In this document: positions 9,262 to 64,000 of the stretch, one piece after another
How positions within the stretch are numbered: position 1 is the stretch's first letter
Layout: each line of letters starts with the position of its first letter
Source: a virus
IMG/VR virus record: IMGVR_UViG_3300023174_009221
DNA length: 64,000 nt
Reading direction: 5' to 3' (one strand)
Translations under genes and position numbers: made by a program
Notes under the pieces: generated by a model
Databases searched by the model: none
What the model saw: the letters and a program-made list of their open reading frames with translations, nothing else
What the model was told of the DNA's origin: nothing

Positions 9262-10359
9262 ATGATTAAAAAATGGTCAAATTTTATAAACGAAAATAAA
9301 CTTTATCTTTTTAACAGAAAGTTTAGAATATCATCTCTTATTGAATCCAAGATATATCCACTTAAACTTGTCAAAAAATGGATGTCTGAGTATGATTGTG
9401 ACCAGTTTGCACATTGTGTATTGGTTTCTAAATCTCCGATTACAAAAACCACAGATGTTAAGTATTTAATACAAACCACTTCAAGAGATATTTCAAATGT
9501 TAATTATTTTAACACATCGACAAAAAAATATGACGGGTATTTACCAGAAGATTCAAAACTAATAATCAATGAACAGGAGGTATTTCTTTATATTTTCAAA
9601 AAGAATTCGAATTTACAAAATAGGGCAAGACAAATACACGGTTTTATCTATGAAGGAGAAGTAAAAAATCTTAACGGTTTGGCTAAATTGAAAAAAACAG
9701 ATAAGTGGGACGCCGAAGGTGGTCTTGATAAATCCTATCTAACCAGAAGAATCGAGCAACAAAAGTCGGTAGAATTTTTCAATGGGTCAACCTATTTAGA
9801 CCTTGTTAAAATTGATGAGATATCGGGGTTCAAAGAATGTAACTGGGAATTAGTTCCACAAGGGTTTAAAGACCACCATAACTGGAGCATTAAATGCATG
9901 GCAAACAGGACCGATATCGAATTTGGAGACTTCAAAAGAATTTCAGGTTTAGAAAAAGATGGAAAAAAGATTAAAATTTTACATTCAAATGAACAAAATT
10001 TTATGATAGCAATTGGATTTCATGACGGGTCAGCAGATAAAAAAGTTTTAGTAGAGTATATAATCTGTATGCCGGTATCGATTTGGAAAACATTTCTTCC
10101 TAACTTACAGACTAAATTAGAGGATATCACAATGATGTATAATGATTTAGATCAACACAAATTAGTAGGTGAAAGAACCGAAGAATCTGAAAAAAATTGG
10201 CAATACTACACTTCAATCTATAAAGGAATATGCAGTGATACTCCAATTAAATTAAGATTTAAAAGAGACAGCAAAGGTCAACTTAGAATACAGTGCGCTA
10301 TGTCATTTACTAACTTTACTAACTTGGTTCTTAAATTACCCCACATCAGAATCGGATAA
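9262..10359 (+). CDS. Putative type II restriction endonuclease-like protein with capsid-targeting-like leader
   Basis: N-terminus MIKKWSNFINE; QIHGFIYE...KWD...SIK pattern resembling PD-(D/E)XK REases; directly upstream of an MTase. Confidence 0.5.
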   Translation: MIKKWSNFINENKLYLFNRKFRISSLIESKIYPLKLVKKWMSEYDCDQFAHCVLVSKSPITKTTDVKYLIQTTSRDISNVNYFNTSTKKYDGYLPEDSKLIINEQEVFLYIFKKNSNLQNRARQIHGFIYEGEVKNLNGLAKLKKTDKWDAEGGLDKSYLTRRIEQQKSVEFFNGSTYLDLVKIDEISGFKECNWELVPQGFKDHHNWSIKCMANRTDIEFGDFKRISGLEKDGKKIKILHSNEQNFMIAIGFHDGSADKKVLVEYIICMPVSIWKTFLPNLQTKLEDITMMYNDLDQHKLVGERTEESEKNWQYYTSIYKGICSDTPIKLRFKRDSKGQLRIQCAMSFTNFTNLVLKLPHIRIG

Positions 10360-15209: not shown

Positions 15210-15937
15210 ATGAAATATCTTAAGAACTTCAAGTTATTTTTAATAACAGAGGCTAACGATGAAGAGATTTTAAAGCTGGAGAATGAAAAAAGAGTCCTAA
15301 ATGATGAATTCGACAAAAAAATGGATGATTTTTTAGGCGAGTATGCTGATGAGTTAGAAGAAGCCCAGGGAATTAAACAGGCCTTAGATGTGTTAAGAAA
15401 AGTGATCAAAAAAAAAATGGGGTGGTTAAGACATTCAAGCAGCTTAAAGGCACACTATCTTGTATGAAAAAACTCACGACTCTTGAGAAAAAAATAGCAG
15501 AACTGAAGGGTGAAAAATATGACTCAGTAGTTGAAAATATTTTAAATACAATAAAAGAAGCTCTGACACCCAAGAATCTAGCAAAAATAATTAATGGGAA
15601 AACCGAAGAACTCGAAATTGAATATAGTAAAAAAGCAGGAGGAGAAGCGACGGGTGAAATTAAAGATGTCAAAGTTTCAGATGATGGCACAGTCGAGGTA
15701 TCAATAGAAAATGATAAAGTAGGTATTGTTAAAAAAGATATAACCGAAATCACCGGCGGAGCGGATGATGAAAAAGAAGAAAAATCTGACAGTGTTGACT
15801 TAGTTCAAAAACTTAAAGAAATTAAATCTAAACAACCAAAAAATATAATAGCTTTCTTAAAAATATCTAAACTCTATTTAGATCCTATCAAAAATAAAGA
15901 ATCAATTCAAGATATTGAAAATATATTAAATAAGTAA
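15210..15937 (+). CDS. Capsid-leader-bearing protein split by a frameshift at an A10 run (ORFs 15210-15467 and 15422-15937)
   Basis: MKYLKNFKLFLITE leader; A10 at 15408-15417; the -1 frame continues open to 15937. Confidence 0.6.
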
Positions 15938-17627: not shown

Positions 17628-18224
17628 ATGAGTATAAGAAAATTCAAGCAATTTATCACCGAAGAGTTAAATGATCCACAGGAAACTTATATTAAGATGT
17701 TGCTAATGAATATTAGAGAAGAGATCAATTCTATATTTGAAGAAGAATCAGAAAATATACCCTCAGGTGAAAAAACAATTTCTCAGGCAAAATTAGATTC
17801 AAAAAAGAAAAAGAAAAAAACTCTTAAAGATCAGGGAATTACACTTGAAAGTAGTGAGATTTCTTTATATTCTAGATTATATGATTCACTTACAATAAAA
17901 TTTTCAGATAACTTAAGCTCCTGGTATTCAGTTATTATATTAATTGACCTAAAGGACGCGGCTCCAAAAGATCCAAAAAAAGATTTTAGAATGGAGGATA
18001 TAAAAAAAGCCACCATCAAAATTAGAAAATACGATTCCGATACCGATACTTTAATAAACTGGCTTAGCATGACTGTTGAAATCGAGAAGAAATCGGGTTG
18101 GAATTGGACTGTCAACAAAGATGATGAAAAAAAGAAACAAACTCTTACAACAGAGGATTTCATAACCTTTATAAAATCCGAAATTGATGGCCAAGATAAA
18201 AGTTTTCAAATAGAAACCGAATAA
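17628..18224 (+). CDS. Hypothetical protein with capsid-targeting-like leader
   Basis: MSIRKFKQFITEE; AATATATA at 17616. Confidence 0.7.
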   Translation: MSIRKFKQFITEELNDPQETYIKMLLMNIREEINSIFEEESENIPSGEKTISQAKLDSKKKKKKTLKDQGITLESSEISLYSRLYDSLTIKFSDNLSSWYSVIILIDLKDAAPKDPKKDFRMEDIKKATIKIRKYDSDTDTLINWLSMTVEIEKKSGWNWTVNKDDEKKKQTLTTEDFITFIKSEIDGQDKSFQIETE

Positions 18225-20095: not shown

Positions 20096-21334
20096 ATGAA
20101 ATTAAAAAAATTTATTGATTTCTTAACCGAAAGCAAAATTGAAGAATTAGTTTTAGAGTCAAAAGTAGTTTTATCAGATAGATTTATTAATCTTCTATCA
20201 AGAATGTCTTCAAATAAAGTAGCTCAGCAGCTAATTGATGTCAATTCAAAAGACTTTGCCACTCAGCATAACTATATTGACGTAACAGACAATAAAGAAG
20301 AATTATCATTTACACCTGATAGAAAAGTTCAGGAACTAATTGGAAATAAACCAGTTGTTTATGTGGTAGGAACAAGAAGGCAATTAACGCATAGTGATAC
20401 AAACGATGCGATATTTGACATCTTAGGATACGATAGATACCAAGATATTTGGAGACCCGAAAGTGGACAAAAAGGTCTAATAAAGGCCGAAACTGTTAGT
20501 CAACAATCTAATAAAGTGTTTGTGCTTTTTGAAGAACTAACTGACAGTGAAGAAAAGAGATTGGCAGTGCTAAACAAGGATTCACTATCAGTGTTGGAAC
20601 CAAATGATTCACATATCTGGAACACTTCTCGAAATCCAATAAGAGTTGGTAGACTAGTAAGGCCCCTCTTAAGAGCCGCTGGTGTCTCTGTTACGGACCA
20701 AGAACTTGAAGAATTTGTTAACCAATGGAAAGCTACTTATGATTTTGCATCAAATGCCCTAAATCAATTTGATATTGTACAAGGTGATGATATTAAAAAG
20801 TGGTATTGGTATGAAAATTACCAAGAAGGTGGAGGGTCAATGAATAACTCTTGTATGAGCCATGTTTCCAGTGAGTTAATGGATATATATGCAAAAAATC
20901 CACAAGTTTCATTGGTAATACTTTATTCTGATAAAGGTGAAATGGTAGGGGATAAATATGTATCAAAAAAAATTAAAGGACGTGCTATTCTTTGGGATTG
21001 TACTATTTTAGGCGGTAATGAAAAATTTATGGACAGAATCTACACAGTTCAAGATTCAGATATTGAACTTTTCAAACAGTTTGCTCAAAAAAATAAATGG
21101 TACTACAAAGAGGCCCAAACAATGGAGCCAAATGAAAAAATTACCAGAGGCCAGTCACCGGTTAAAGCAGAAATAACAGCAGAACTAGACTATGTAGATT
21201 TGGATTTTTATCCATATTGTGACACATTGTGTTACTTGTACCCACGTTATAAGATAATTTCAAATGTATATGACCAAAACCGTGATGTAAGAGTGCTTAG
21301 AACAACCGATGGTGAATATTATGACGAACCTTAA
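20096..21334 (+). CDS. Jumbo-phage hypothetical protein with capsid-targeting-like leader
   Basis: MKLKKFIDFLTES; NSCM...GRAILW...FMDRIYT...YPYCDT motifs. Confidence 0.75.
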   Translation: MKLKKFIDFLTESKIEELVLESKVVLSDRFINLLSRMSSNKVAQQLIDVNSKDFATQHNYIDVTDNKEELSFTPDRKVQELIGNKPVVYVVGTRRQLTHSDTNDAIFDILGYDRYQDIWRPESGQKGLIKAETVSQQSNKVFVLFEELTDSEEKRLAVLNKDSLSVLEPNDSHIWNTSRNPIRVGRLVRPLLRAAGVSVTDQELEEFVNQWKATYDFASNALNQFDIVQGDDIKKWYWYENYQEGGGSMNNSCMSHVSSELMDIYAKNPQVSLVILYSDKGEMVGDKYVSKKIKGRAILWDCTILGGNEKFMDRIYTVQDSDIELFKQFAQKNKWYYKEAQTMEPNEKITRGQSPVKAEITAELDYVDLDFYPYCDTLCYLYPRYKIISNVYDQNRDVRVLRTTDGEYYDEP

Positions 21335-21409: not shown

Positions 21410-23272
21410 TCAATTGACTTCTTCAAAATCAGCATCTTGAACTTCATCATTTCCAGTGCTGGTATTCTGAGTAGTTTCAGATTGATTTTTTGTTTGTTGA
21501 TAAAGACGAGTGCTAATTTCAGACCAAGTTTGATTAAGTTCAGATTGAGCTGTGTCTATTTTTTCTAAATCTTTTTCAGAGAAAGCAGACTTTAGTTGGT
21601 CTAATTTCGTAGTAAGATGAGATTTATCATCTTCAGTCAGTTGCTCAGAGAACTCTTTAAGTTGTTTCTCTGTTTGGAATATTAAAGAGTCGGCCGCATT
21701 TAGCTTTTCGGCTCTTTCTTTTTCTTTAGCATCTGCCTCAGCATTTGCCTCAGCTTCCTGTTTCATTCTTTCAATTTCTTCTTTAGATAATTGTGAGTTA
21801 CCTTCAATTCTGATATTATTCTCTTTTCCGGTAGCTTTATCTTTAGCAGAAACAGAAAGAATTCCATTTGCATCGATATCGATCGTTACCTCGATTTGCG
21901 GAACACCTCTCGGCGCTGGCATAATTCCCCCTAAGTGAAATCTACCAAGAGATTTATTATCCCGAGCCATCGGTCTTTCTCCCTGAATAACATGGATTTC
22001 AACTGAAGACTGATTGTCAGACGCAGTTGAAAATGTTTCAGATTTTCGAGTAGGGATTGTGGTGTTACTTTCGATTAATTTAGTCATGACCTGTCCCATA
22101 GTTTCAATACCAATTGAAAGTGGAAGCACATCAAGTAACAAAACGTCAGTAACGTTTCCAGTCATTACACCACCCTGGATAGTTGCGCCAGTAGAAACAC
22201 AAGTATCAGGATTTAGGGATTTAGAGGGTTTTTTTCCAAAAAGTTTTTCAAGTTTTTCTTGAACAAGTGGGATTCTAGAAGACCCACCGACAAGGAGAAC
22301 TTCATTGATTTGTGAAGTTTTTAACCCAGAACTCTTCAAAGCTGATTTAGATTTGTTGATTGTTCTTTCAATGATAGGATCAATCAACTGTTCGAACTTG
22401 GACTTTGACAACTGTCTAACCAAGTGTTTTGGTATACCATCAACCGAGGTGATGTAAGGTAGATTGATATCAGCCTGTGATGAACCAGATAATTCAATTT
22501 TTGCCTTTTCAGCAGCCTCGAACAATCTTTGATGAGCCATTGGGTCTTTTCTAAGATCCATACCTTCGTCTTTCAAAAATTCTTCAGCCATCCAATTTAC
22601 TACTTCTTCGTCGATTAGGGATCCACCTAAATCTAAGTCTCCGTCTGTTGATAAGATTTCAAATACTCCATCTGCGACATCAACAATAGAAAGGTCCATT
22701 GTACACCCACCAAAATCAAAGACAGCATATTTGTTTTCGGATTTTGAATCGACATTCAAAATAGCTGCCGTTGGTTCAGCAATAACTCTTTCTACCGTAA
22801 GACCAGCAATTTCACCAGCTAATTTTGTTGCTTGTCTTTCTTCTGAGTTAAAGTGAGCAGGAACCGTGATGATGGCTCTTTTCACCTCATGCCCAAGGAA
22901 ATCTTCAGCGGTTTTTTTCATTTTCTGAATAATCATAGCTGAAATTTCTTCAGGTGAGTAGGTCTTGTCATCGATTTGTATTCCAGGTCTTCCTTTCTGG
23001 TCAACAATTTTGTAAGGTCTTTTAAGGTGTTTAACTTGCTCATAAGTTTTACCCATCAAACGCTTAATGTTAAAAATTGTTTTTTCAGGATTAATCGTTG
23101 CTTGTCTTTTAGCTGGATCCCCTACTTTGATACCATCTTTTGTAAAAGCAACATAAGAAGGTGTGGTAAGGGCACCTTCTGAATTAGGAATAATTTTTAC
23201 TTCTGTTCCCTCATAAACAGATACGGCGGAGTTGTAACTCCCAAGGTCAATACCAATAATTTTTTCGTTCAT
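21410..23272 (-). CDS. dnaK: Hsp70 chaperone DnaK
   Basis: [55 protein letters not shown]. Confidence 0.97.
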
Positions 23273-23339: not shown

Positions 23340-23420
23340 GTGTTATTGACACATACTACATTTATAGTATTCTATTAAAAAAGGTTTATTCAAATTTAAT
23401 ATATAAAAATAAAAATATTT

Positions 23421-23546
23421 ATGAGATATTTAAAATTATATGAAGATTTTGAAGCTAAAGCTATTTTAGAATCGGATTTTATTATAAATACACTTAATTA
23501 TTTAAAGAAAGGAGCTTTTAAGGCTAATCCATTGGTTTTTGATTAA
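23421..23546 (+). CDS. 41-aa micro-ORF consisting largely of a capsid-targeting-like leader
   Basis: MRYLKLYEDFEAKAILESDFIINTLNYLKKGAFKANPLVFD; AATATATA at 23398. Confidence 0.5.
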   Translation: MRYLKLYEDFEAKAILESDFIINTLNYLKKGAFKANPLVFD

Positions 23547-23591
23547 AATAAAAATACTTCTTTAGATTAGAGTTTTCAAATTAAAATAATT

Positions 23592-23876
23592 ATGAAATTT
23601 TTAAAAGAATTTTCTCTTTGGAATCCAATCATTAATAAAGACGTTGTAGAATTTATTGAAAAAAATAAAACACATCTTTTACATCTTTGGGATAAAGATA
23701 AATCTGAAGAAGAAAATATGCAATTTTTAATAAACTTATTTACCGAGTATCCAGATTTAATGAATGATACAACTGATTTAAAAAAAATAACAATACCACA
23801 ATCAAAAATAGGCTTAAAAAATGCATACCCTATTCTACAAAATATAGGAGGTGTTAGAGATTTTAGGAGTTTTTAA
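23592..23876 (+). CDS. Hypothetical protein (leader-like N-terminus)
   Basis: MKFLKEFSLW; 94 aa. Confidence 0.65.
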   Translation: MKFLKEFSLWNPIINKDVVEFIEKNKTHLLHLWDKDKSEEENMQFLINLFTEYPDLMNDTTDLKKITIPQSKIGLKNAYPILQNIGGVRDFRSF

Positions 23877-23890
23877 ACCCGGTATCCGCG

Positions 23891-24337
23891 TTATGAATTA
23901 GAAGTCAATGCTGGGTAGTTCTGAATTTTTAAAATGTAGTCAACAAATTCGTAGCTGTTCTCAGCGGATACTAAAATTCCCTTATCAATAACTGCTCTAA
24001 CGTCGTCTAAAATCTGGTCTAATTCTAACTTAAATTGTCCTATTTCATTTTGTTTTATGTTATAAATCACTAAATCCTTTATTTTTTCGATATCTGTAGA
24101 ATCCATGACTGGATCAAGAACCGGGTCCCAATTTTTTGACCGAAATGTCCAGAATTTGTGAACCGGATAACCGGGGCTATCATATCCATATGGGTGAACT
24201 TCTTCGCTGAAAGTTTCACCGGTGCATTTTACTATATCCCATTTATCGAATAAATCATACAGAAAATGTGATAGTGTGATATAATCTTCATTTGCTGACA
24301 GATTCTCAAATAGTCTGAAGTTATTTATATGTCTCAT
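23891..24337 (-). CDS. Hypothetical protein with capsid-targeting-like leader
   Basis: MRHINNFRLFEN; AATATATA upstream. Confidence 0.7.
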   Translation of the reverse strand: MRHINNFRLFENLSANEDYITLSHFLYDLFDKWDIVKCTGETFSEEVHPYGYDSPGYPVHKFWTFRSKNWDPVLDPVMDSTDIEKIKDLVIYNIKQNEIGQFKLELDQILDDVRAVIDKGILVSAENSYEFVDYILKIQNYPALTSNS

Positions 24338-24361
24338 AATTTTTATATATTAATTATCTTT

Positions 24362-25126
24362 TTAAGATAAACTACCCCGAAGTAACAAAACTGGCCCTTC
24401 TGTCCAAAATTGTTTTTTATTTTCTATTCTAAAGTCCTCATCATAGTTTAACACCTTAAAGCCCCTAACTTGGGGATTAAAGATATAATTATTAATAAAA
24501 TTAAAACAATCTTCACCAGTTATTGAATCCGGACTTTTTTTCAGATCATCACCACATCTTTCAATAAACGACCTGACGTCTTTTTTTTCTAAATTGAATT
24601 TTGAAATTTTATTTAATCTATTTTGTAGTGTGTCACCACCGACTTGTATCCAGGCAGGGAATAGTCCAATAGCATCTAAAAAATGTTCAACTAAATAAAC
24701 ATCTCCACCCCAGTCATCATCATCATTTCCAAAAGATTCCCAAATAGTTCTATAGGGGCAAATTGCAATTTTTACCCCGTCGAATGGAATGACTTCATAA
24801 ATAGCATCTCCGTAAGAACCAACGGCTCCTGGTGAACCACCAATAACACATCTATCGTATCTTGGATAATCTTTCCAACTCGGAAGATTAGACATTAACT
24901 CCAAGTGTAAATTTGTATCTTCAATTGAACTTCTAAAATCACCCAGTTTTGGATCCACAAAAACAAAGTCTCCTAAGTCAGGCATACCACGAAAAAGTTC
25001 ACTTTCGACACGAGTCCAATTTTTACAATTTTCTTTTCTGATTTTATCAAATTCCGACTCAGTAATAGTTCTGGATCCAAATCTACTATAATTTTCAAAT
25101 ACTTTATATTTCTTAAGCCACTTCAT
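24362..25126 (-). CDS. Hypothetical protein with capsid leader; possible ADP-ribosyltransferase-like fold
   Basis: MKWLKKYKVFEN; LFRGM...SYG..YEVIP; the fold assignment is tentative. Confidence 0.6.
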   Translation of the reverse strand: MKWLKKYKVFENYSRFGSRTITESEFDKIRKENCKNWTRVESELFRGMPDLGDFVFVDPKLGDFRSSIEDTNLHLELMSNLPSWKDYPRYDRCVIGGSPGAVGSYGDAIYEVIPFDGVKIAICPYRTIWESFGNDDDDWGGDVYLVEHFLDAIGLFPAWIQVGGDTLQNRLNKISKFNLEKKDVRSFIERCGDDLKKSPDSITGEDCFNFINNYIFNPQVRGFKVLNYDEDFRIENKKQFWTEGPVLLLRGSLS

Positions 25127-25385
25127 CTATTAGTTCTGCCAATTTTATATCTTTTTGGGTAATAATATCACCAGCATCGTGAGTAGATAATTTAAGTATT
25201 ACTTTGTTATAAGCCCAGTTTATTTCAGGATGGTGATTTTCGGATTCACATATTTTTGCAATTTCATTTATGAATTCTAATGCTTGCTGAAAATCACTAA
25301 ATCCAAATTCCCTTTGGAGTTTTCCATTGATTTCTGACCAGGTTTGGTTTGATTCAAATAATTTATAAGGTGTTAGGTGATTCAC
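25113..25385 (-). CDS. Pterin-4a-carbinolamine dehydratase (PhhB/PCD) with capsid leader
   Basis: LQREFGFSDF..A..F, ENHHPEI, LSTHDAG..T.KD..LA; leader MNHLTPYKLFES. Confidence 0.88.
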   Translation of the reverse strand: MNHLTPYKLFESNQTWSEINGKLQREFGFSDFQQALEFINEIAKICESENHHPEINWAYNKVILKLSTHDAGDIITQKDIKLAELIDEVA

Positions 25386-25388
25386 TAA

Positions 25389-25802
25389 TTATATATTAAA
25401 AAATACAACTAAATTTACAATTTCCTGTTCACCCAACAAATCATAATCTTCTTCGTCTATTTCAACCTCGATTCTTTCAGGGTCACCAACAAAAACGACT
25501 CCACACTTGAACCATCTATCATCTAAGTAAGATTTGATTTGTAGAAGTTCATGTTTTACGTCCGATAATTTAAAATATGGACTTGAATATCCTGTTCTTT
25601 GACGCTGTATAACAAAACCAGGCATCGGCTCGGTTATTAAAAAAGATTTTGCAATTACATCATCAGCCACTCTTACCCGATATCCGTCATACTGTAGATC
25701 TAAAAATGTTTGTAAAATAAAAACCTCGTCTTCTCTAAATTGTTGAAGTTTCTGATTTGACAAATTCTCATTAAATTTTACAAATGTCCTTAAACTCTTC
25801 AT
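25389..25802 (-). CDS. Hypothetical protein with capsid leader
   Basis: MKSLRTFVKFNEN. Confidence 0.7.
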   Translation of the reverse strand: MKSLRTFVKFNENLSNQKLQQFREDEVFILQTFLDLQYDGYRVRVADDVIAKSFLITEPMPGFVIQRQRTGYSSPYFKLSDVKHELLQIKSYLDDRWFKCGVVFVGDPERIEVEIDEEDYDLLGEQEIVNLVVFFNI

Positions 25803-26575
25803 CTTTTTATTAAATTTTTATTCCAAATAACCAAACCATAGGTATCAAATTCTGGACAATAAAAACCATCTGCTCTTTGTAAAATAAAATCTCTCACCCC
25901 TTCATCATACATAGCGTAATCATCAGACAGTGCAATAATTGTCATATCATCTAACTGGAAATCATCTTCTCCACTGTATCCAGGATTATCTCTATAATGT
26001 GTGATGCAATTATCTGTTGTGCAAAAATATGAACCCCTATCAACATCATATTGATTAATATCTGATACACCCCATTCCATTTCATCTTCTTTGCTGTCAA
26101 AACTAAAATATGCTTTTTTTAAACAGTCATACATTTCGGTCTTTTTGAAATCCACCCATTTAATAAACTCTACTCTTTTGTCTGCGGCTCTAACCGTTGC
26201 CCAATGAGGAAATTCATCTAATATTTCATATTCCAAATATCCCCATTTAGAATAATCTTCTGGTGTTAGAATTAAATAATCATCTTCTGTATTCTTAGTA
26301 AATTGTTTCACCGAGAAGTCAATAATTTGTCCATCAATCATAGGAGCAATGTGAGCTTCTCTATCTGAATCAAAATAAACTATTTCGACATCTATTGATT
26401 TTGACTTAGACCAGTTATAAAATTCTTTTGTAAACCAAGAACAATTTGCCTTTTCTTTATCAAAAGGCTTACCTAATCTCAGGTCATATTGATAGGAATA
26501 TTCATCTAAGAATTGATTTGCTAAAGAATCTAAATTTTTGAATTCAAATAATTTATATGTTTTTAAGTGTCTCAT
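25799..26575 (-). CDS. Capsid-leader protein with papain/transglutaminase-like Cys-His-Asp pattern
   Basis: MRHLKTYKLFE; ANCSWF...AHIAP...IIDFSVKQF. Confidence 0.6.
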   Translation of the reverse strand: MRHLKTYKLFEFKNLDSLANQFLDEYSYQYDLRLGKPFDKEKANCSWFTKEFYNWSKSKSIDVEIVYFDSDREAHIAPMIDGQIIDFSVKQFTKNTEDDYLILTPEDYSKWGYLEYEILDEFPHWATVRAADKRVEFIKWVDFKKTEMYDCLKKAYFSFDSKEDEMEWGVSDINQYDVDRGSYFCTTDNCITHYRDNPGYSGEDDFQLDDMTIIALSDDYAMYDEGVRDFILQRADGFYCPEFDTYGLVIWNKNLIKR

Positions 26576-27384
26576 TTTACAGATTTAAGTTTCAAGTTTT
26601 TTGTCAAAGATTTCATTTTAAGATATTTATCTTCATCTTCACCGACCAAGTCTAATGTTTGTCTATTTATTTCTGCATCACCAAAATAAATTGGAATACC
26701 CCCTTTATAATAAGGATTACCATTTATCATTTCAATGGGTAATTCAACTTTTTGATTCTGAGACCAACCTACTATTTCACAGGTTTCATCTTGTATAAGT
26801 TTTTTCCAAATAGCCTCTTTTGATTCAGGTGTTTGTGTATCATCACTATAAAGCGGAATATTCAATTCTCTAACAAAACCTTTATATGTTGATATACCTA
26901 ATCTTTTAATACCTAACTTTTTTATCAGATGCCAGTTAGAACCAGTTGTGGCTACTTTGACACCATCTTCAAAATCTTTAACAACTATTGCAAAAATAGG
27001 ACTTCCTAAATTATATTTTTCAAATAAACCAGTAGCTCTACTCTCAATATCTTCTGGTAATTGATATCCTGATGGTTTGGAATCACAGAATTCTAAATTC
27101 ACCCCATTCAAGTGTGTAAAAATAATTCCTCTTCTTTCACTTTCAAATCTAAAATAAGATCCAGATAAACCACCTTCTAAATTCCACTTCTTAACTAACT
27201 TAACACCAGTTGCTGAAATTTCTGACTCATAATCACCTTCCCTAAAAGAACCTTCACAGACATCATAAACCCACAACAACATAGGAAGTACATATCCGTT
27301 TTTATCGGAATTACCTAACGATGGCCAACTTGGCATATTAATAATTTCTTCTAAGATAAATTCTGAATAATTTTTAATCTTCAT
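26572..27384 (-). CDS. Capsid-leader protein with GNAT-like C-terminal region
   Basis: MKIKNYSEFILEE; RLGISTY...LYSDDTQT...IWKKL. Confidence 0.6.
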   Translation of the reverse strand: MKIKNYSEFILEEIINMPSWPSLGNSDKNGYVLPMLLWVYDVCEGSFREGDYESEISATGVKLVKKWNLEGGLSGSYFRFESERRGIIFTHLNGVNLEFCDSKPSGYQLPEDIESRATGLFEKYNLGSPIFAIVVKDFEDGVKVATTGSNWHLIKKLGIKRLGISTYKGFVRELNIPLYSDDTQTPESKEAIWKKLIQDETCEIVGWSQNQKVELPIEMINGNPYYKGGIPIYFGDAEINRQTLDLVGEDEDKYLKMKSLTKNLKLKSVK

Positions 27385-27420
27385 AACTCTATATATAAAA
27401 AAAAGAGTTAAAAACTTATC

Positions 27421-28704
27421 TTAATTATCCTCTTCAAAATCCTGCGGTTCTCTAAAAAATAGCGTCGAGTCTTTACTCTTTAACCATGCTCTGGCTATTT
27501 CTAACCTCTTTGTCTTATCCCTTAACCACTCAACTACCATTTCATAAGGCTGACATCTTTTTAGAGACCTTTCATAGAATTCAATATCTTCATAAATATC
27601 CAATATCTCTTCTTTGGACATTGATTTAAGTTTTTGGGCTTTATCCATATTCATAACAAATCGAAAATTAGAATTTGTTTTATTACCAGAAGCGTAGTCT
27701 TTTTTAGACAAACCAGATTCAACATATTCTTGATATGTCAATTGTATTTCATCTACTTTATCTTTTAATGTCTTTTTCACAATAGAGATTATCTTTTGAA
27801 TTCTCAAATGTGTTTCTTTTTCATCTTCTGTAATTTGAGAAACTACATCATCAATTACATCATCTAAGATATATCCAATAATAATATGTTCTCTATAAAT
27901 ATCATTTGTATAAATAGAATGTAGATTTCTATACCAGTCGGTTTTAATCTTAATCATTTGACCATTTTCAAATTGAACAACCCAACCTTCTTTATCAACT
28001 TCTGATTTAGATTTTTCAATCAAATCTTCTAGTGTGCACACATCTTCGAATTGAGCAATCTTAATTGAACCAATTTTATCTAAGTGGTCTTTTATATCAA
28101 TATGTTTTCCAGTCTTATTATCCCTAAGTCGAAGAAGTATAAGTTCTTCTTTTGGGTATCTCAGAACTATACGGTTTTGAGGAGATACATATTCAAAAAT
28201 AGGGACTATATCACCATCTAAACAAAAATTCACGAATGCCCTAACATCAGGATTTGTTTTGTAAATTCTATTAATTCCATTTGCTTGGGTATTATCAAAT
28301 CCCATTTTTGATTTACCTAATATTTCACCATTAGGTAACTTTATAAATGTCGCAATTGATCCATCTTCTTTACCATTAACATATCTTATTTTATAGTCTT
28401 TAACAACAGAATACATTGAATCAGCGACCTGATTTAAGTTAAAGAACTTTTCAAGTAGCACGTATCTATTATAAAGACTACCATCTTTATTGAAGACAAA
28501 AGTAAGACCTCTCATTTCAAAACCTTTAAGTTTTGGCTGTTCGAAAATAGGTGCTTTAAAATCCGAATACTGAGCAAGTCTATAATTGAAAATAGAAACA
28601 CCAAAACCATTTACTTCAATTTTTGTTTCATAGAAAGGACTATCGACATATTGACATAATGCGACGGCCTGTTGATAAGACGGTATGTGATAACTCTTTT
28701 TCAA
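27421..28704 (-). CDS. RNA ligase (T4 Rnl1-like)
   Basis: EMRGLTF, EKFFNLNQ, motif I KEDGS, FEYVSPQNRIV, EGWVV, KIK. Confidence 0.9.
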   Translation of the reverse strand: MKKSYHIPSYQQAVALCQYVDSPFYETKIEVNGFGVSIFNYRLAQYSDFKAPIFEQPKLKGFEMRGLTFVFNKDGSLYNRYVLLEKFFNLNQVADSMYSVVKDYKIRYVNGKEDGSIATFIKLPNGEILGKSKMGFDNTQANGINRIYKTNPDVRAFVNFCLDGDIVPIFEYVSPQNRIVLRYPKEELILLRLRDNKTGKHIDIKDHLDKIGSIKIAQFEDVCTLEDLIEKSKSEVDKEGWVVQFENGQMIKIKTDWYRNLHSIYTNDIYREHIIIGYILDDVIDDVVSQITEDEKETHLRIQKIISIVKKTLKDKVDEIQLTYQEYVESGLSKKDYASGNKTNSNFRFVMNMDKAQKLKSMSKEEILDIYEDIEFYERSLKRCQPYEMVVEWLRDKTKRLEIARAWLKSKDSTLFFREPQDFEEDN

Positions 28705-34111: not shown

Positions 34112-35182
34112 ATGAATAAAGACTATTATAACATTTTAGGAGTTGATCGAGGTGCTACTGAAGAAGAAATCAAAAAGGCTTACAGAAAATCAGCGCTTCA
34201 ATACCACCCAGACCGTAATCCAGATAATCCTGAAGCCGAATCAAAATTTAAAGAAGCAGCCGAAGCGTATGATGTTCTTTCAAATCCAGAAAAGAAATCA
34301 AACTACGACAAATTTGGAACTGCTGATCCAAATCCATTTGGCGCAGGCGGTAATCCATTTGGCGGATTTGGCCACGGCTTTTCAATGGATGATATCTTTT
34401 CACAATTTGGTGATATATTCGGTGGTGGATTTGGAAATTCAAGACAAAAAAAGACCAGAAGAGGTGGTGATTTAAGATTAAAGGTAAATTTGACAATTTC
34501 TGAAATTTTGACAGGTTGTAAAAAGAAAGTTAAATATAGAAGGCAAAAAAATTGTGAGTCTTGTAACGGAAATGGCGGATCTGATGTTAGAGATTGCTTA
34601 CCCTGTTCAGGTAGGGGAACTAGAATTGTAATTCAAAATACACCGTTTGGTCAAATGAGACACGAAAGCACTTGTCCGGATTGCGGAGGCAATGGAAAAA
34701 AAGTTGCCAAAATTTGTCAACAATGTCAAGGCGAAGGTACAAGATCAGTCGAACAAGTAGTAGATATTGACATACCAGCAGGAGTTTCAAGTGGTATGGC
34801 ACTTTCAATGCGTGGATATGGAAACGACATTAAGGGTGGAATACCGGGTGATCTGCAAGTGATTATAGAGGAGCTAAGAGAATTTTGGTTTCAGAGAGAC
34901 GGTGGCAATTTAATAGTCGAAAAAGAGATATCAGTAATAGACGCAATCGTTGGGTCACATATTAAAGTCAAAACACCACACGGAATGATACCAATTACAA
35001 TTGAACCAGGGACCACACACGGTAAATCAATTCGAGTTAGACAAAAAGGTGTCAATGATATAAACTTAGGATTAGGTGATTTAATTGTTAATATTAAAAT
35101 ACACATCCCAAACAACATCACACTTGAAGAAAAATACCTCCTACAAAAACTACAAACATCAAGAAATTTTGTAGTCGAATAA
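34112..35182 (+). CDS. dnaJ: Chaperone DnaJ
   Basis: J domain with HPD, G/F region, four CxxCxGxG repeats. Confidence 0.97.
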
Positions 35183-48610: not shown

Positions 48611-48898
48611 ATGAAGATATTAAAATTTGCAGAGTTTGAATTAAACGAGTCTTTACCACGTAAAAAGACTGTCGATCAGTGGAATAAACTTAGAAGGATG
48701 ACAAAAGGTGTCGATATAGGTGACCGTATATCTGACTTAAACAAACAGGGAGCAAATATCCAATATTATCAGAATCCAGTAGATACTGGGATTGAATCAT
48801 ATGAAGATTATGAAGAGCATAATAAAAAGTTTGTTCCAAGTTGGAACTTAAAAGGAATGTTGTCTCCGTTTTCTGGTGAAGGGAAAAAGAAGTCATAA
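48611..48898 (+). CDS. Hypothetical protein with capsid leader (start reassigned)
   Basis: MKILKFAEFELNES; AATATATA at 48599. Confidence 0.7.
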   Translation: MKILKFAEFELNESLPRKKTVDQWNKLRRMTKGVDIGDRISDLNKQGANIQYYQNPVDTGIESYEDYEEHNKKFVPSWNLKGMLSPFSGEGKKKS

Positions 48899-48937: not shown

Positions 48938-49342
48938 GTGAAATACATTAAAATATTTGAGAATTTTCTTACTACATCAGAGATAGAATCTATCTTTTGG
49001 GACTTAAAAGACAATGGATTTACTATTGATATTCACGATTTTAAAAATATTGACCAATATCTAATTGGAATAAAAAAGTTTGAAGGTTACTTAAGACCAT
49101 TTTTGATAGACTCTGAAATCATCAGTTCTATTTTAACTTTGGAAAGTTTCGCAGAGGAGCAAGGATTCAAAATTTCTAACATTTCAATAAATCATCCCTA
49201 TCATAAACAAAGTTCAAGAGACGTCACCATTTCAGATGGGGCTTTTTTTGTCAAAAGTGTGTATGGTCCACCTTTTCAACCAGAAAGGGTAAAAGTCGAA
49301 GATAAAGTTATGTGGATATCTATAAAATTAGAGAAAATGTGA
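48938..49342 (+). CDS. Hypothetical protein with capsid leader
   Basis: MKYIKIFENF; AATATATA at 48926. Confidence 0.7.
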   Translation: MKYIKIFENFLTTSEIESIFWDLKDNGFTIDIHDFKNIDQYLIGIKKFEGYLRPFLIDSEIISSILTLESFAEEQGFKISNISINHPYHKQSSRDVTISDGAFFVKSVYGPPFQPERVKVEDKVMWISIKLEKM

Positions 49343-49424: not shown

Positions 49425-50285
49425 ATGAAGAAACTAAAAAAATATAGCATATTTCTAGAGTCTTTTCGAAAAGACACAGCAGTTTCGCGTGAATATTCTA
49501 TATTTGATTGGTTTGAGGATTTGAAAAGAGATAATTGGAATGCTTCAAATATTGAAAGACATAAAATATGGACTGAACATTTTATTGGCGAGGGTTGGTG
49601 GGATAAAATCACATCACATGTTGATAAAATATTTAAAGCTTTATCAGAAGTAAATATTAGACACATCAAAGATGCTATGCTAGAAGTTTTTGATACTCTA
49701 CCAGAACAAAAAAGTAGAAATATTTATACCGCCATTTTAAATGGAGACTATGAAAGAATTGATGATTCTAATAATTTTAAATTCAACGGCACTATGCCAA
49801 TTATGGATTTAAATGATAAAAATAGAAAAGATTATGTAATCATAAGTATTCTAATATCAATGGTCCATCCAACCCTTTACTATTCTCGTTTCAAAGAAGA
49901 TGCGGTATTAAGAGATACTAAAGAAAGTGAATATGTAACTGACCAGAGATGGCAATGTCAGAATTTTGACTTTGAACAATTTCATAAAACAGGACATCTT
50001 AGAGACTATGAATTTAGTAAAGTTCAAAAGTATTCACCTAAAAATGTCCTTTCAATGTATAGACCAGGTATAGTTATAAACATTGGTGGATGGGGTTCTG
50101 ATTCAAGATACACTGGTGAAATGTATTTAGATGATTTAGAAGCTGCACTAGACGCGGTAATTGAGGTTGTAGAATCAGAGGTTGATTACGAAGAAGTTAT
50201 TTGGCCATATACAAGAGGTGAGAGACATTATGACACATCAAAACCTATATATGAATATGATTTAAAAATATTACTTAAAATGTGA
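49425..50285 (+). CDS. Hypothetical protein with capsid leader
   Basis: MKKLKKYSIFLES. Confidence 0.72.
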   Translation: MKKLKKYSIFLESFRKDTAVSREYSIFDWFEDLKRDNWNASNIERHKIWTEHFIGEGWWDKITSHVDKIFKALSEVNIRHIKDAMLEVFDTLPEQKSRNIYTAILNGDYERIDDSNNFKFNGTMPIMDLNDKNRKDYVIISILISMVHPTLYYSRFKEDAVLRDTKESEYVTDQRWQCQNFDFEQFHKTGHLRDYEFSKVQKYSPKNVLSMYRPGIVINIGGWGSDSRYTGEMYLDDLEAALDAVIEVVESEVDYEEVIWPYTRGERHYDTSKPIYEYDLKILLKM

Positions 50286-51025
50286 TGAAGTATATAAAGT
50301 CATATAAATTATTTGAATCTGTTAGTAAAATACAGTTTCCAACATATACAGAGTTACATGATTTCTTTATAGAGTTAGAAGATGATGAGATAACTAAATT
50401 TAACTATAATAGTAGTGCCGAATCGCTCAGCAAATTCATTGACGGTGGATATCTTTTCTTTCCACAAAGATGGGATAGAACTATTCAATCACAACTCTAC
50501 TTTGATATGTCTTTTAGAGAAGACTATTTAAATCATAAACCAAAAGAACTAATGGGTGAAACTTGGAGTGAATTTTTTTTGGATCCTCTGACTTTTCCCG
50601 ATAAAAAATTCCTTAGAAGAAGAACTGAATGTATACATTTGGACGATGTAGAACAAAGTGTGACAAATGTAAAACAGCTAGGCCGAAAAGAAAAAACCTT
50701 CAAAGAATTATTTATAGAAGAAATTGAAAAAGGTAATATAAAAGCTTATCCTTTTATTTATATGACATTTGATATATTTCTACCAAAACATTTAGACAGG
50801 GTTATAGAAAGACTAGAAATGGTTTATGAATCAACTGGTTTTAGACCACTTTATGGATTCTGGGAAGAAGATTATGTAGATGAAAATAACGATGGTGTGG
50901 TCACTTTTATAAACTCAAACTTGTGTTTGGTAAATGTTTCGGATGAAGAATATAAAAATCTTATTAAGATATTTGATGATCATAATGTTGATAAACAAGT
51001 AACGAAACATTTTTTAAATCAATGA
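50285..51025 (+). CDS. Hypothetical protein with capsid leader
   Basis: MKYIKSYKLFES; ATG overlaps the upstream stop. Confidence 0.72.
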   Translation: MKYIKSYKLFESVSKIQFPTYTELHDFFIELEDDEITKFNYNSSAESLSKFIDGGYLFFPQRWDRTIQSQLYFDMSFREDYLNHKPKELMGETWSEFFLDPLTFPDKKFLRRRTECIHLDDVEQSVTNVKQLGRKEKTFKELFIEEIEKGNIKAYPFIYMTFDIFLPKHLDRVIERLEMVYESTGFRPLYGFWEEDYVDENNDGVVTFINSNLCLVNVSDEEYKNLIKIFDDHNVDKQVTKHFLNQ

Positions 51026-61311: not shown

Positions 61312-61985
61312 TATCCTATTATATTTTTAATTAATTTCCAGTGATCTGGATGTCTTTGGTCATTTTCATCATAAATTTCACCTACAAATTGATAATCAAT
61401 TCTGTCGGTTGGAAACGGTTTAGTTTCGCCACCATAGTTAAGACCAAACTCTGAGTGCTCAAAAGCGTATTCTTTTAAAGAAGGGTATATCTGTGATAAA
61501 AAATCTTGGTCACATCCTTTCTTCGAATATCTATTCCATTCCGCTATTGAATTAGACAAATTTGATTCCCTTAAGATACCCCTTCGACAACCCCACATTC
61601 CACCTAATATAGGAACTGTATGATAAGGGTGGTCTCTCATAATATGAATGTCTTTATCGGACTTTAACCACTCATCTATGGCAAAAAACTCCCTGTCTGT
61701 AAATCTACTATCACAATCTCTTGAAAGAAAAATATCAACTTCTGGATCTTCTACAGCCCAGAATCTCCAAAACATGCCGTGAAAAGAATCTTTAGAATCC
61801 ACTAACACAACTTCAACACCATCACCTTTAATCGTTTCAATGAGTTCTTGATTGCAATTTTTATCTATATAAAATCTGCAAATCCAATCTGGAAAGTATT
61901 TTTTAACACCTTCAATATTTCTGATTGCACCAACCCAATACATTGGGTGATCTCCCCATAGAGAATAGGCTACGACATTTTTCAC
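61311..61985 (-). CDS. Glycosyltransferase-like protein
   Basis: YSLWG...Y..GAI.N, GMFWRF, SRDCDSR, HIMRDHP.H, ILGGMWG, DQDFL. Confidence 0.7.
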   Translation of the reverse strand: MKNVVAYSLWGDHPMYWVGAIRNIEGVKKYFPDWICRFYIDKNCNQELIETIKGDGVEVVLVDSKDSFHGMFWRFWAVEDPEVDIFLSRDCDSRFTDREFFAIDEWLKSDKDIHIMRDHPYHTVPILGGMWGCRRGILRESNLSNSIAEWNRYSKKGCDQDFLSQIYPSLKEYAFEHSEFGLNYGGETKPFPTDRIDYQFVGEIYDENDQRHPDHWKLIKNIIG

Positions 61986-62722
61986 TCTAAAATTGATTTA
62001 ATTTTCTGAACCACACCATCAAATCTAGACTTGTTTGTCATTTTATGCAGTGGTGATACTACCCGGTCTACCCATCTTTCTCTTTGGTGCCACATATGAA
62101 TTATAGTGTTGTTTAACAAATTTGTTGTTTGAAACTCCTCGCCAAAAACTGGCTCTAAATAATGAAACCTACACCCGGCTTCTTTTAACACCCACATAAA
62201 ATCATAATACGGTTCAGTTTCAGGCTTCCAAATCAACCCAAGGGGTTTTCCAGAAGATCCGAACTCCATATCCCATTCATAGTGCGAATGGTTCTTTTTT
62301 TCATACGGGTATTCTTCGATCCACTCACTTTTGAATTGACAAACTGCTGTTCGGTTGTTCCAAGAGTCAATACATTTTCTATTCATTATCATAAAAAATG
62401 AATTAAGAGCCATGTGATTTCCACTTCTATACTCAAAATGGCCGTCTGGTGGTCCGGCTATATCATAGTTGTTATCGGTCATATATTGAATCAAATTGTG
62501 AATTTCATCTGCTGATGTGATAAAGCAATCTTCATCAATATGAACATACCAATCGGCTTCATAACTTTTAGCAAAATCTAACCATTGATACCAAACAGTA
62601 AACCAACCAGATCTACCATCAAATTTGACTATATGTGATTCTCGGAAAAATTTTCTAATACAAGCTGACTGAAGCTCCTGTATATCAGAAAATGTGGAGG
62701 TGGTGAAAAATACTATCTTCAT
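61982..62722 (-). CDS. Glycosyltransferase-like protein
   Basis: VHIDEDCF (DxD), EPYY, HMW. Confidence 0.6.
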   Translation of the reverse strand: MKIVFFTTSTFSDIQELQSACIRKFFRESHIVKFDGRSGWFTVWYQWLDFAKSYEADWYVHIDEDCFITSADEIHNLIQYMTDNNYDIAGPPDGHFEYRSGNHMALNSFFMIMNRKCIDSWNNRTAVCQFKSEWIEEYPYEKKNHSHYEWDMEFGSSGKPLGLIWKPETEPYYDFMWVLKEAGCRFHYLEPVFGEEFQTTNLLNNTIIHMWHQRERWVDRVVSPLHKMTNKSRFDGVVQKIKSILE

Positions 62723-62730
62723 TTAATTTT

Positions 62731-63324
62731 TTATTTTTTTATACCCCAGAAATATAAATCACAGTGTTTCGTCTCAACTTCGAATCTATAGGAAGAAAAT
62801 ATTGCATCAACATCAATGCAATTTCTGACATCTTCTTCTGTTACGTTTCTATAATACTCAGAATCCCAGTCTTCTCTGAAAACATTTGGCATAGTTATCC
62901 AATTTTCAGCAGAGTTACCTTGTGATGTTACAAGTTTTTCTCTATCTATCTTATCCTGTGTTTTAGTCCCGTGAATAGGTCTACCTGTAGTTGCGCAAGT
63001 AAATATTAAATACCCACCGGGTTTTAACATTCTAACAGCGTTCTGTATACTTTCTTTATAAAACGGATTGTGCTCCCAACACTCACAAGATATAATAGTA
63101 TCAAATGTTTCATCCGGTGCATCGTATTCGTTTGCAGGACAAACAACATCAACTCCTTTTCCTGGACCTATGTCCAATCCAGTAAAGTCGCAATTATCAA
63201 ACCAAGGTTTTTCGTTTCCATTAACATCAAATGATCCAATGTCTAAAACTTTACAGTTTGTAAATGCAGATGGGAATTCTTTTTTTATTCTGTCTAAATA
63301 ATCTTTTTGTTCTTTATGTGCCAC
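62731..63324 (-). CDS. SAM-dependent methyltransferase (type 11)
   Basis: VLDIGSFDVNG, G.GVDVV, FDTIISCECWEH, LKPGG. Confidence 0.85.
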   Translation of the reverse strand: MAHKEQKDYLDRIKKEFPSAFTNCKVLDIGSFDVNGNEKPWFDNCDFTGLDIGPGKGVDVVCPANEYDAPDETFDTIISCECWEHNPFYKESIQNAVRMLKPGGYLIFTCATTGRPIHGTKTQDKIDREKLVTSQGNSAENWITMPNVFREDWDSEYYRNVTEEDVRNCIDVDAIFSSYRFEVETKHCDLYFWGIKK

Positions 63325-63372
63325 TCTTTTTTTGTTTTTTATATTTTAATTTTAATAAGGTACAAGACTAAG

Positions 63373-64000
63373 TCATATTTTAATTCTTTCTTCTACCGGT
63401 AATAATTTTCTCCTATTCCAAGTTATTTCATCTTCTTTCCACTTTTGATTATAAGCCCTATCTGCTTCATCTGAGTTTCTTTTACCAGCTGCATAGTGAA
63501 GATGTTCGAAAACCGTCTCGTCGTTTAATCTATCATCATAAAGTAAGCCCAAATCTTTTAAGTTATTATATAACTCACAATCTGAGAACATATGATTGTA
63601 AGAGGGGTGGTAAATTACGGAGTTTAACTTTTTTAAACAACCCCAAGTCATAATAGGAATTGTAATAGCCGGATGTAACATATTAGAAGAATCCGGTAAT
63701 TGATAACCATCTCTAACCATAAGACCAACATCTCCCATTTTTTCAAATTTATTTATTAAATAGGTGTCCCAATTTTGAGGAGCTAAAAAATCATCAGAGG
63801 CAAAAATAACAATATCACTTTCATCTACTACACCCATTTTAATTCCTAAATTAGAAGAAAGTTGATAAGAAGGATAACAAACACCAATCTTATTGGTGTT
63901 TAGAGTTATTATATAATCGTTTTTCAAATAATCTCTTAAATTATCAGCATGTTCCACCCAATTAACGGCGACATATGTTTTTATATTGTCTGGCGCATCA
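63373..64000 (-). CDS. GT2-like glycosyltransferase (5' end beyond window)
   Basis: IFASDDF, YHPSYNHMFSD, FEHLHY. Confidence 0.75.
   Translation of the reverse strand, partial: DAPDNIKTYVAVNWVEHADNLRDYLKNDYIITLNTNKIGVCYPSYQLSSNLGIKMGVVDESDIVIFASDDFLAPQNWDTYLINKFEKMGDVGLMVRDGYQLPDSSNMLHPAITIPIMTWGCLKKLNSVIYHPSYNHMFSDCELYNNLKDLGLLYDDRLNDETVFEHLHYAAGKRNSDEADRAYNQKWKEDEITWNRRKLLPVEERIKI

Follow-up and report, generated by a model that had tools for sequence, protein, structure and literature searches.

A shared N-terminal leader in a viral gene cassette

Eight consecutive open reading frames (ORFs) at positions 23421-27384 of a 64,000-nucleotide (nt) stretch of viral DNA, which we call the window (IMG/VR record IMGVR_UViG_3300023174_009221), encode proteins that begin with variants of one short peptide, here termed the leader or tag. 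The leader has the form M-[KR]-x-[LIV]-[KRN]-x-[FY]..F..E and a length of 8-12 residues. A preliminary description of this DNA had pointed to these eight starts and to eight more elsewhere in the window (9262, 15210, 17628, 20096, 48611, 48938, 49425 and 50285). All sixteen begin as described; the ORF at 23592-23876 carries the first half of the motif only (Table 1).

Table 1. Tagged ORFs and promoter boxes of the window (aa, amino acids).
Feature	Position	Strand	Remarks
Promoter box, TAATATATA-type	23398-23405	+	15 nt before ATG at 23421
41-aa ORF, leader MRYLKLYEDFE	23421-23546	+	
94-aa ORF, MKFLKEF	23592-23876	+	first half of leader only, no Glu nearby
148-aa ORF, leader MRHINNFRLFEN	23891-24337	-	no family match
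Promoter box	24344-24351	-	6 nt before ATG at 24337; near-leaderless mRNA predicted
254-aa ORF, leader MKWLKKYKVFEN	24362-25126	-	body in phrog_12810, weak ART-like fold (see text)
90-aa pterin-4a-carbinolamine dehydratase, leader MNHLTPYKLFES	25113-25385	-	GTG start
Promoter box	25390-25397	-	4 nt before GTG at 25385
137-aa ORF, leader MKSLRTFVKFNEN	25389-25802	-	no family match
258-aa ORF, leader MRHLKTYKLFE	25799-26575	-	domain A (~14-133), domain B (134-258)
270-aa ORF, shifted leader variant MKIKNYSEFILEE	26572-27384	-	no family match
Promoter box	27390-27397	-	5 nt before ATG at 27384
365-aa ORF, shifted leader MIKKWSNFINEN	9262-10359	+	box 4 nt upstream
85-aa ORF, leader MKYLKNFKLF	15210-15467	+	
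198-aa ORF, shifted leader MSIRKFKQFITEE	17628-18224	+	LR745206 orthologue keeps leader MKIRKYIEFITED
412-aa ORF, shifted leader MKLKKFIDFLTES	20096-21334	+	two paralogues elsewhere on record
95-aa ORF, leader MKILKFAEFELNES	48611-48898	+	
134-aa ORF, leader MKYIKIFENF	48938-49342	+	GTG start
286-aa ORF, leader MKKLKKYSIFLES	49425-50285	+	
246-aa ORF, leader MKYIKSYKLFES	50285-51025	+	

Within the cassette, the box at 27390-27397 likely starts the overlapping run of genes for the 270-, 258- and 137-aa proteins. The leader of the 254-aa protein, MKWLKKYKVFE, is encoded at 25094-25126 on the minus strand. Two bases of the window, 25106 and 37626, differ from the version in the genome record; with the record's base at 25106, codon 7 of the 254-aa gene reads TAA instead of TAT, whereas 13 public contigs have the intact version that is present in the window. 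A public contig of 492,847 bp also encodes this protein.

In a virus record of 165,275 bp (G+C 31.6%), which CheckV estimates to be 56% complete, the window corresponds to bases 69276-133275, read on the reverse strand. A 1053-aa structural protein encoded on the record outside the window is 64.6% identical to its counterpart in LR745206.1, a 634,780-bp uncultured phage that is the closest complete genome, and 60.9% identical to that of LR756502. Identity falls to 26-39% for LR756501, LR756504, LR756500, the Lak phages, PAU and PTm5, and the PTm5 homologue adjoins head-completion and neck genes. From these identities and the gene context in PTm5, we conclude that the window is part of a Bacteroidota-associated clade of huge phages around LR745206. 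The clade is uncultured throughout, and the readings of the tag given below rest on computation. Single-protein scans of IMG/VR yielded one close sister contig only, of 63 kb (L007), and a search of a phage collection with the cassette DNA and the 258-aa protein gave no useful match.

The leader is strongly concentrated at protein starts. Its strict core, M-[KRN]-x-[LIV]-[KRNT]-x-[FY], opens 18 of the 184 proteins of the 165-kb record, whereas 0.25 would be expected from the frequency of this core inside proteins, and it follows an internal methionine in only 2 of 762 cases. With a variant shifted by one residue included (MKLKKFIDFLTES, MKIKNYSEFILEE), about 33 genes, or roughly one gene in six of the record, are tagged. 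At the DNA level, the back-translated core (ATGARRNNNHTNARRNNNTWY) is present in 10 copies in the window, eight of which are ORF starts, versus 0.94 ± 1.08 copies in dinucleotide shuffles, and none of 100 shuffles reaches 10. An origin in AT-rich composition can be rejected, since PTm5 is equally AT-rich (30% G+C) and has no recurrent N-terminus (0 of 295 genes), in agreement with the shuffles.

Related genomes carry the leader in very different numbers. A 30-nt pattern matches 10 times in the record, 8 times in the sister contig, 26 times in LR745206, 43 times in LR756502, 26 times in LR756504 and 14 times in LR756500; LR756501 and Lak-A1 have one match each, and PAU and PTm5, which are equally AT-rich, have none. 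Reversed controls of the pattern gave 0-1 matches per strand, and 0 in this record. For LR756501, of which the first 400 kb were read, about 10 loose matches among 531 genes show no sharp consensus. LR745206 has 88 tagged genes out of 921. The hexamer [FY]K[LIV]FE[SNA] is found there 15 times at N-termini and never internally, and a Glu falls at positions 8-14 in 79 of 80 leaders, followed by S in 36, N in 10 and A in 8.

The genes that carry the leader vary strongly between relatives. The sister contig holds another set of leader genes at the same site beside dnaK, where an orthologue of the 94-aa ORF (23592-23876) adjoins dnaK, and LR745206 lacks homologues of all eight cassette genes. Those leader proteins that do have an LR745206 homologue are more diverged than other gene products (median identity 39% vs 54%), and the homologues usually keep a leader.

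Several neighbouring genes can be named. Directly beside the cassette, 21410-23272 encodes a full-length phage Hsp70 (DnaK). An Hsp70 gene is found in most of the huge-phage relatives and in Lak-A1, and is absent from LR756500, PAU and PTm5; DnaJ-like genes lie at 34112-35182 and at other sites on the record. The cassette is flanked at 27421-28704 by a T4 Rnl1-type RNA ligase gene (PF09511, E 3.7e-17). At 61482-63428 of the record, a flavodoxin/FMN-reductase-like gene is split by an intein with a LAGLIDADG domain.

Protein bodies behind the leader

The expectation that the proteins behind the leader are mostly unrelated is borne out by an all-against-all BLAST comparison of 35 leader-stripped bodies, which recovers three small paralogue groups only, and by their differing Pfam families. 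These are Pterin_4a in the cassette and, elsewhere on the record, GATase, a BSD2-type zinc finger and an AbiEii-like domain; searches of PHROGs and Pfam returned no family for most leader proteins. The pterin dehydratase proposed for the cassette is confirmed at 25113-25385 by Pterin_4a (PF01329, E 2e-26, 92.3 bits against a cut-off of 26). Residues 11-89 of this protein align to positions 13-91 of the profile, and the leader MNHLTPYKLFES replaces the usual N-terminus of the family. The statement that metabolism genes lack the leader is consequently not strictly true, given that both the dehydratase and a GATase-domain protein are tagged.

As to the papain-like protein of the preliminary description, a Cys-His fold of the papain/NlpC-P60 kind is likely, but in the 258-aa protein, on the basis of an AlphaFold model. 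Domain A of the model has MepS, PMT C3, SseI and other NlpC/P60 proteins as its top Foldseek matches (E 0.014-0.07, probability up to 0.96), and in it C45 begins a helix (45-58) and H75 lies on a strand (75-80). In other phages the domains of this protein are rearranged as leader+B, leader+A+dehydratase, leader+dehydratase+A, leader+zinc finger+A and leader+A+exonuclease, and the leader stands first in every such rearrangement seen. Among metagenomic relatives, domains A and B also occur alone or fused to pterin dehydratase, a zinc finger or a 3'-5' exonuclease.

For the 254-aa protein, an ADP-ribosyltransferase (ART)-like nature had been suggested, and this can be retained in a weak form. VIA-align matches the model to Arr with a Z score of 5.2 and to PARPs, Tpt1 and AvrPphF ORF2 with Z scores of 3-4, and most matches are ADP-ribosyltransferase folds, but none of these scores reaches the level at which true matches can be told from chance ones. 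The invariant residues R46 (in F-R-G), S67 and E111 could fit an R-S-E pattern. Foldseek gave no significant match for this model, and a search of the ESM Atlas retrieved unnamed viral clusters only. Among 28 orthologues (48-75% identity), leader positions L4, Y7 and E11 are at least 90% conserved, and several orthologues have a doubled leader end (..YSLFERFSKENKIFEN..).

In the AlphaFold models of these two proteins, the predicted local distance difference test (pLDDT) score is below 50 for residues 1-11 of the 254-aa protein, with a mean of 88 over the rest, and below 50 for residues 1-10 of the 258-aa protein. At the N-terminus, the leader alone is left unfolded in both models, and as modelled it stands outside the folds.

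Head machinery and the role of the leader

Components of a T4-type head are recognizable in LR745206. This genome has a Gp23-family capsid gene (E 6.8e-26) and, just upstream of it at 198546-200669, a gene for a 707-aa protein in which residues 1-165 form an S77 protease domain fused to a scaffold. The S77 profile score is 20 bits, which is below the cut-off, whereas the S77 proteins of PTm5 and PAU are above it. However, hhalign matches the domain to T4 gp21 with an E value of 1.2e-4, the segments GELNHP/GEFDHP and VSSRG/VSSRA are in register, and a His (H72) and a Ser (S127/S128) are invariant in 24 homologues. Besides about eleven 14-residue repeats, NIxYSEY[IL]AENLDK, the scaffold part has an acidic stretch and a C-terminal domain. 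Public metagenomes contain over 4,000 cluster representatives of this protease-scaffold protein, on contigs as long as 591 kb, so the clade is common.

The strings that close the leaders (KLFE|S, FNE|S) are found again at conserved domain boundaries of the protease-scaffold protein. Between its protease and scaffold parts lies an invariant V-L-N-E-S-L-G, which aligns with I-T-E-S near the C-terminus of T4 gp21, and the repeats end in G-G-K-[LV]-[FN]-E-[SN], with the same alternation of F and N (LFES/LNES) as in the leaders. The repeats themselves contain [IL]-A-E-N, and the N-terminal piece of the capsid protein has a conserved [ILM]-x-E-N (e.g., I-N-E-N) around residue 45 in five huge phages and PTm5. 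Similar strings are present in T4, where gp22 contains IFES, LFES and LAEN and gp68 contains INEN. We predict that the motifs shared by leaders, scaffold and capsid protein are cleavage sites. T4 gp21 cuts after L/I-x-E, and the propeptides of T4 internal proteins (IPs) are 10-19 residues long (PMC9026906). Leader subtypes ending in KLFE, K[IV]FE or [IL]xE fit this rule, and the FNE subtype has F at P3.

On balance, we favor the view that the shared N-terminus is a detachable propeptide for capsid targeting like that of T4, and that its carriers are packaged, cleaved and injected. Several independent computational lines fit the original suggestion of a T4-type tag on unrelated proteins, which is thereby supported in part. 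According to this scheme, the leader genes would be under the control of the phage's own TAATATATA-type promoters, either directly or as downstream genes of a transcript, and the head genes would use the same promoters. The first 7-10 residues of the leader would form a basic, amphipathic peptide whose positions 4, 7 and 10 are hydrophobic or aromatic, with Lys or Arg in between, and would have affinity for the assembling prohead core. This core would be built from one protein, the S77 (gp21-like) protease fused to an acidic scaffold with 14-residue repeats. Once activated inside the prohead, the protease would cut after the Glu that terminates the leader, at [LIV]-[FN]-E↓S/N, and would likewise cut such sites in the scaffold and the capsid protein. 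The mature proteins would then stay beside the DNA in the head and accompany it into the next host.

The tagged genes probably amount to a large and changeable protein cargo, as judged from their sequences. This cargo would include the pterin dehydratase, the papain/NlpC-P60-like Cys-His protein, possibly the ART-like protein, and many small acidic orphans. Since the tag is short and positional, any domain placed behind it could become new cargo, which fits both the turnover of the cassette and the domain shuffling between relatives. Expression of the leader genes together with head genes is plausible. In LR745206, an ATATATA box lies before the portal, protease-scaffold and capsid genes, and in this record before fibre and neck-adjacent genes. 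Boxes of the TAATATATA type are found at two spacings, either 4-7 nt before the start (near-leaderless) or about 17-27 nt before it with an A-rich leader, and some other genes are preceded by host-type TAnnTTTG boxes.

A number of observations count against this interpretation. An ATATATA box is found before nrdB and some 190 further genes as well and is no proof of late timing. Of the protein bodies, 87% are acidic (pI, the isoelectric point, <6; median 4.8), whereas the internal proteins of T4 are basic. To our knowledge, 88 tagged genes in one genome is far above any known virion cargo. The 165-kb record has no match to Gp23 or S77, and its head genes are postulated from relatives. About one-third of the leaders end in x-F-E (e.g., MKYLKTFES), where P3 is not hydrophobic and the fit to L/I-x-E is poorer. 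Furthermore, LR756501 has the same scaffold repeats and few leaders, and in Lak-A1, PAU and PTm5 a Gp23-family capsid gene is found (in PAU and PTm5 together with an S77 match) but no leader. Because these four genomes possess head genes with few or no leaders, the tag is, by gene content, not an obligatory partner of T4-type head machinery.

We think it unlikely, although worth serious consideration, that the leader docks some other common partner, such as a chaperone, a degradation adaptor or a localisation factor in the infected cell, and that its carriers are never packaged. A peptide that is basic and hydrophobic is, in general terms, what Hsp70 binds, and phage dnaK lies directly beside the cassette both in the window (21410-23272) and in the sister contig. 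Moreover, in their small size and acidity the bodies resemble typical host-takeover proteins, and the models suggest a tag that is flexible and exposed. However, Hsp70 and the tag do not co-vary, as LR756500 has the tag without Hsp70, while LR756501 and Lak-A1 have Hsp70 with few or no tags, and for this reason we reject a client tag for the phage Hsp70. Docking to a partner in the cell would also leave unexplained why the tetrapeptides at the tag end reappear at protease-scaffold boundaries and in T4 gp22.

There is only a slight chance that the leader is a signal in the nucleic acid, be it for near-leaderless translation initiation, as the operator of a RegA-like repressor, or as a recombination joint that spreads cassettes of promoter and first codons. 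Such a signal would agree with the TAATATATA-type box that about 24 leader genes of the record have 2-7 nt before the start codon, and with cassette contents that differ between relatives exactly at leader boundaries. Nevertheless, the synonymous sites are free. In LR745206, codon choice at K2, K5, L4, Y7, F10 and the Glu equals genome-wide usage (e.g., AAA:AAG 51:18, with 51:18 expected), with modest departures only at Y3, at F7 and in the small sample of Ser, and leader codons vary synonymously in this record too. Amino-acid replacements, in turn, are conservative (K/R, L/I/V, F/Y). Because synonymous codons vary freely, the codon comparisons indicate that selection on the leader acts at the level of the peptide. 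In addition, leader genes that lie within operons and have no box still carry the tag. Half of the leader genes in LR745206 are without a promoter box within 45 nt (a box precedes 40 of 88), and at least 80 genes of that genome have the near-leaderless layout (4-7 nt) and no tag. The free synonymous codons and these untagged genes lead us to reject a translation signal for leaderless mRNAs.

Least probable of all is that the leader is a functionless relic of descent from one ancestor gene: a few tagged genes are indeed true paralogues, but no similarity can be detected among most bodies and some are members of unrelated cellular families (Pterin_4a, GATase), key tag positions are more than 90% kept while the bodies diverge to 48% identity, the tag is again N-terminal after domain rearrangements, and it is retained among phages that share only 29% identity in their structural proteins.

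Comparison with known capsid-targeting systems

Our literature searches found no paper with these leader strings and none that links capsid targeting to huge phages. If the leader is a capsid-targeting propeptide, it would be a marker, readable from sequence alone, of virion cargo in phages that nobody can grow, and would nominate some 33 proteins from this fragment and about 90 from every complete relative. The tagged proteins would be the first to meet the host, and hence prime candidates for anti-defence or host-takeover functions. The turnover of the cassette would be explained by the swapping of bodies behind a fixed tag, and the tag could supply a second, orthogonal packaging signal for engineering. 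The head-loading trick of T4 would then scale to a tenth of a proteome. We put forward more tentatively, as a possibility that falls somewhat short of an expectation, that a widespread clade of Bacteroidota phages of 460-640 kb gives about one-tenth of its genes (about 90 per genome) to proteins with a single capsid tag that docks on the 14-residue acidic repeats of the fused protease-scaffold protein, and that these phages in this way inject a large, fast-changing arsenal of enzymes and small acidic proteins with their DNA. The broader proposition, that a clade of uncultured megaphages uses the capsid-targeting principle of T4 in a new form and to a far greater extent, is partly supported by the data.

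Giant phages of the phiKZ type (phiKZ gp175, 201phi2-1, SPN3US) also have many head proteins that are trimmed C-terminal to Glu by a diverged gp21-type protease, sometimes at redundant sites (PMC9026906). The doubled leader end of some orthologues in the present clade resembles such redundant sites. However, the phiKZ-like propeptides are long, mutually dissimilar and described by an S/A/G-x-E logo, whereas one short common tag is used here, and the Bacteroidota-associated huge phages are a different clade.

The closest parallel is the capsid-targeting sequence (CTS) of T4, which is likewise a short N-terminal peptide on unrelated bodies (IPI, IPII and IPIII, and the short propeptide of Alt) and is cut by gp21. 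The diverse internal proteins of T4 have only the CTS in common (PMC3012670), its sequence is MKTYQEFIAE (PMC8442874), and in IPIII targeting involves residues 4 and 7, and processing involves residues 8 and 10 (PMC9026906). Both peptides start with M-K, have a hydrophobic residue at position 4 and an aromatic one at position 7, and end in hydrophobic-x-Glu followed by a small or polar residue, although a match over ten residues is too short to demonstrate homology. The lineage, like T4, has an S77 protease and a Gp23-family capsid protein, and in both cases the cargo loci are hypervariable between relatives (PMC9026906, PMC3012670). The core of the scaffold repeat, YSEYIAE, is strikingly like residues 4-10 of the T4 CTS, YQEFIAE, and by this resemblance the T4 tag may mimic a segment of scaffold.

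The two systems nevertheless differ in several respects. The consensus of the leader, MK[YH]LKx[FY] followed by K[LI]F or N and then E, has no demonstrable homology to MKTYQEFIAE. The predicted cargo is mostly acidic, as opposed to basic in T4, and protease and scaffold are one fused protein with 14-residue repeats. Above all, the scale is different, with about 33 tagged genes in 165 kb and 88 in the 635-kb relative, compared with a handful in T4.

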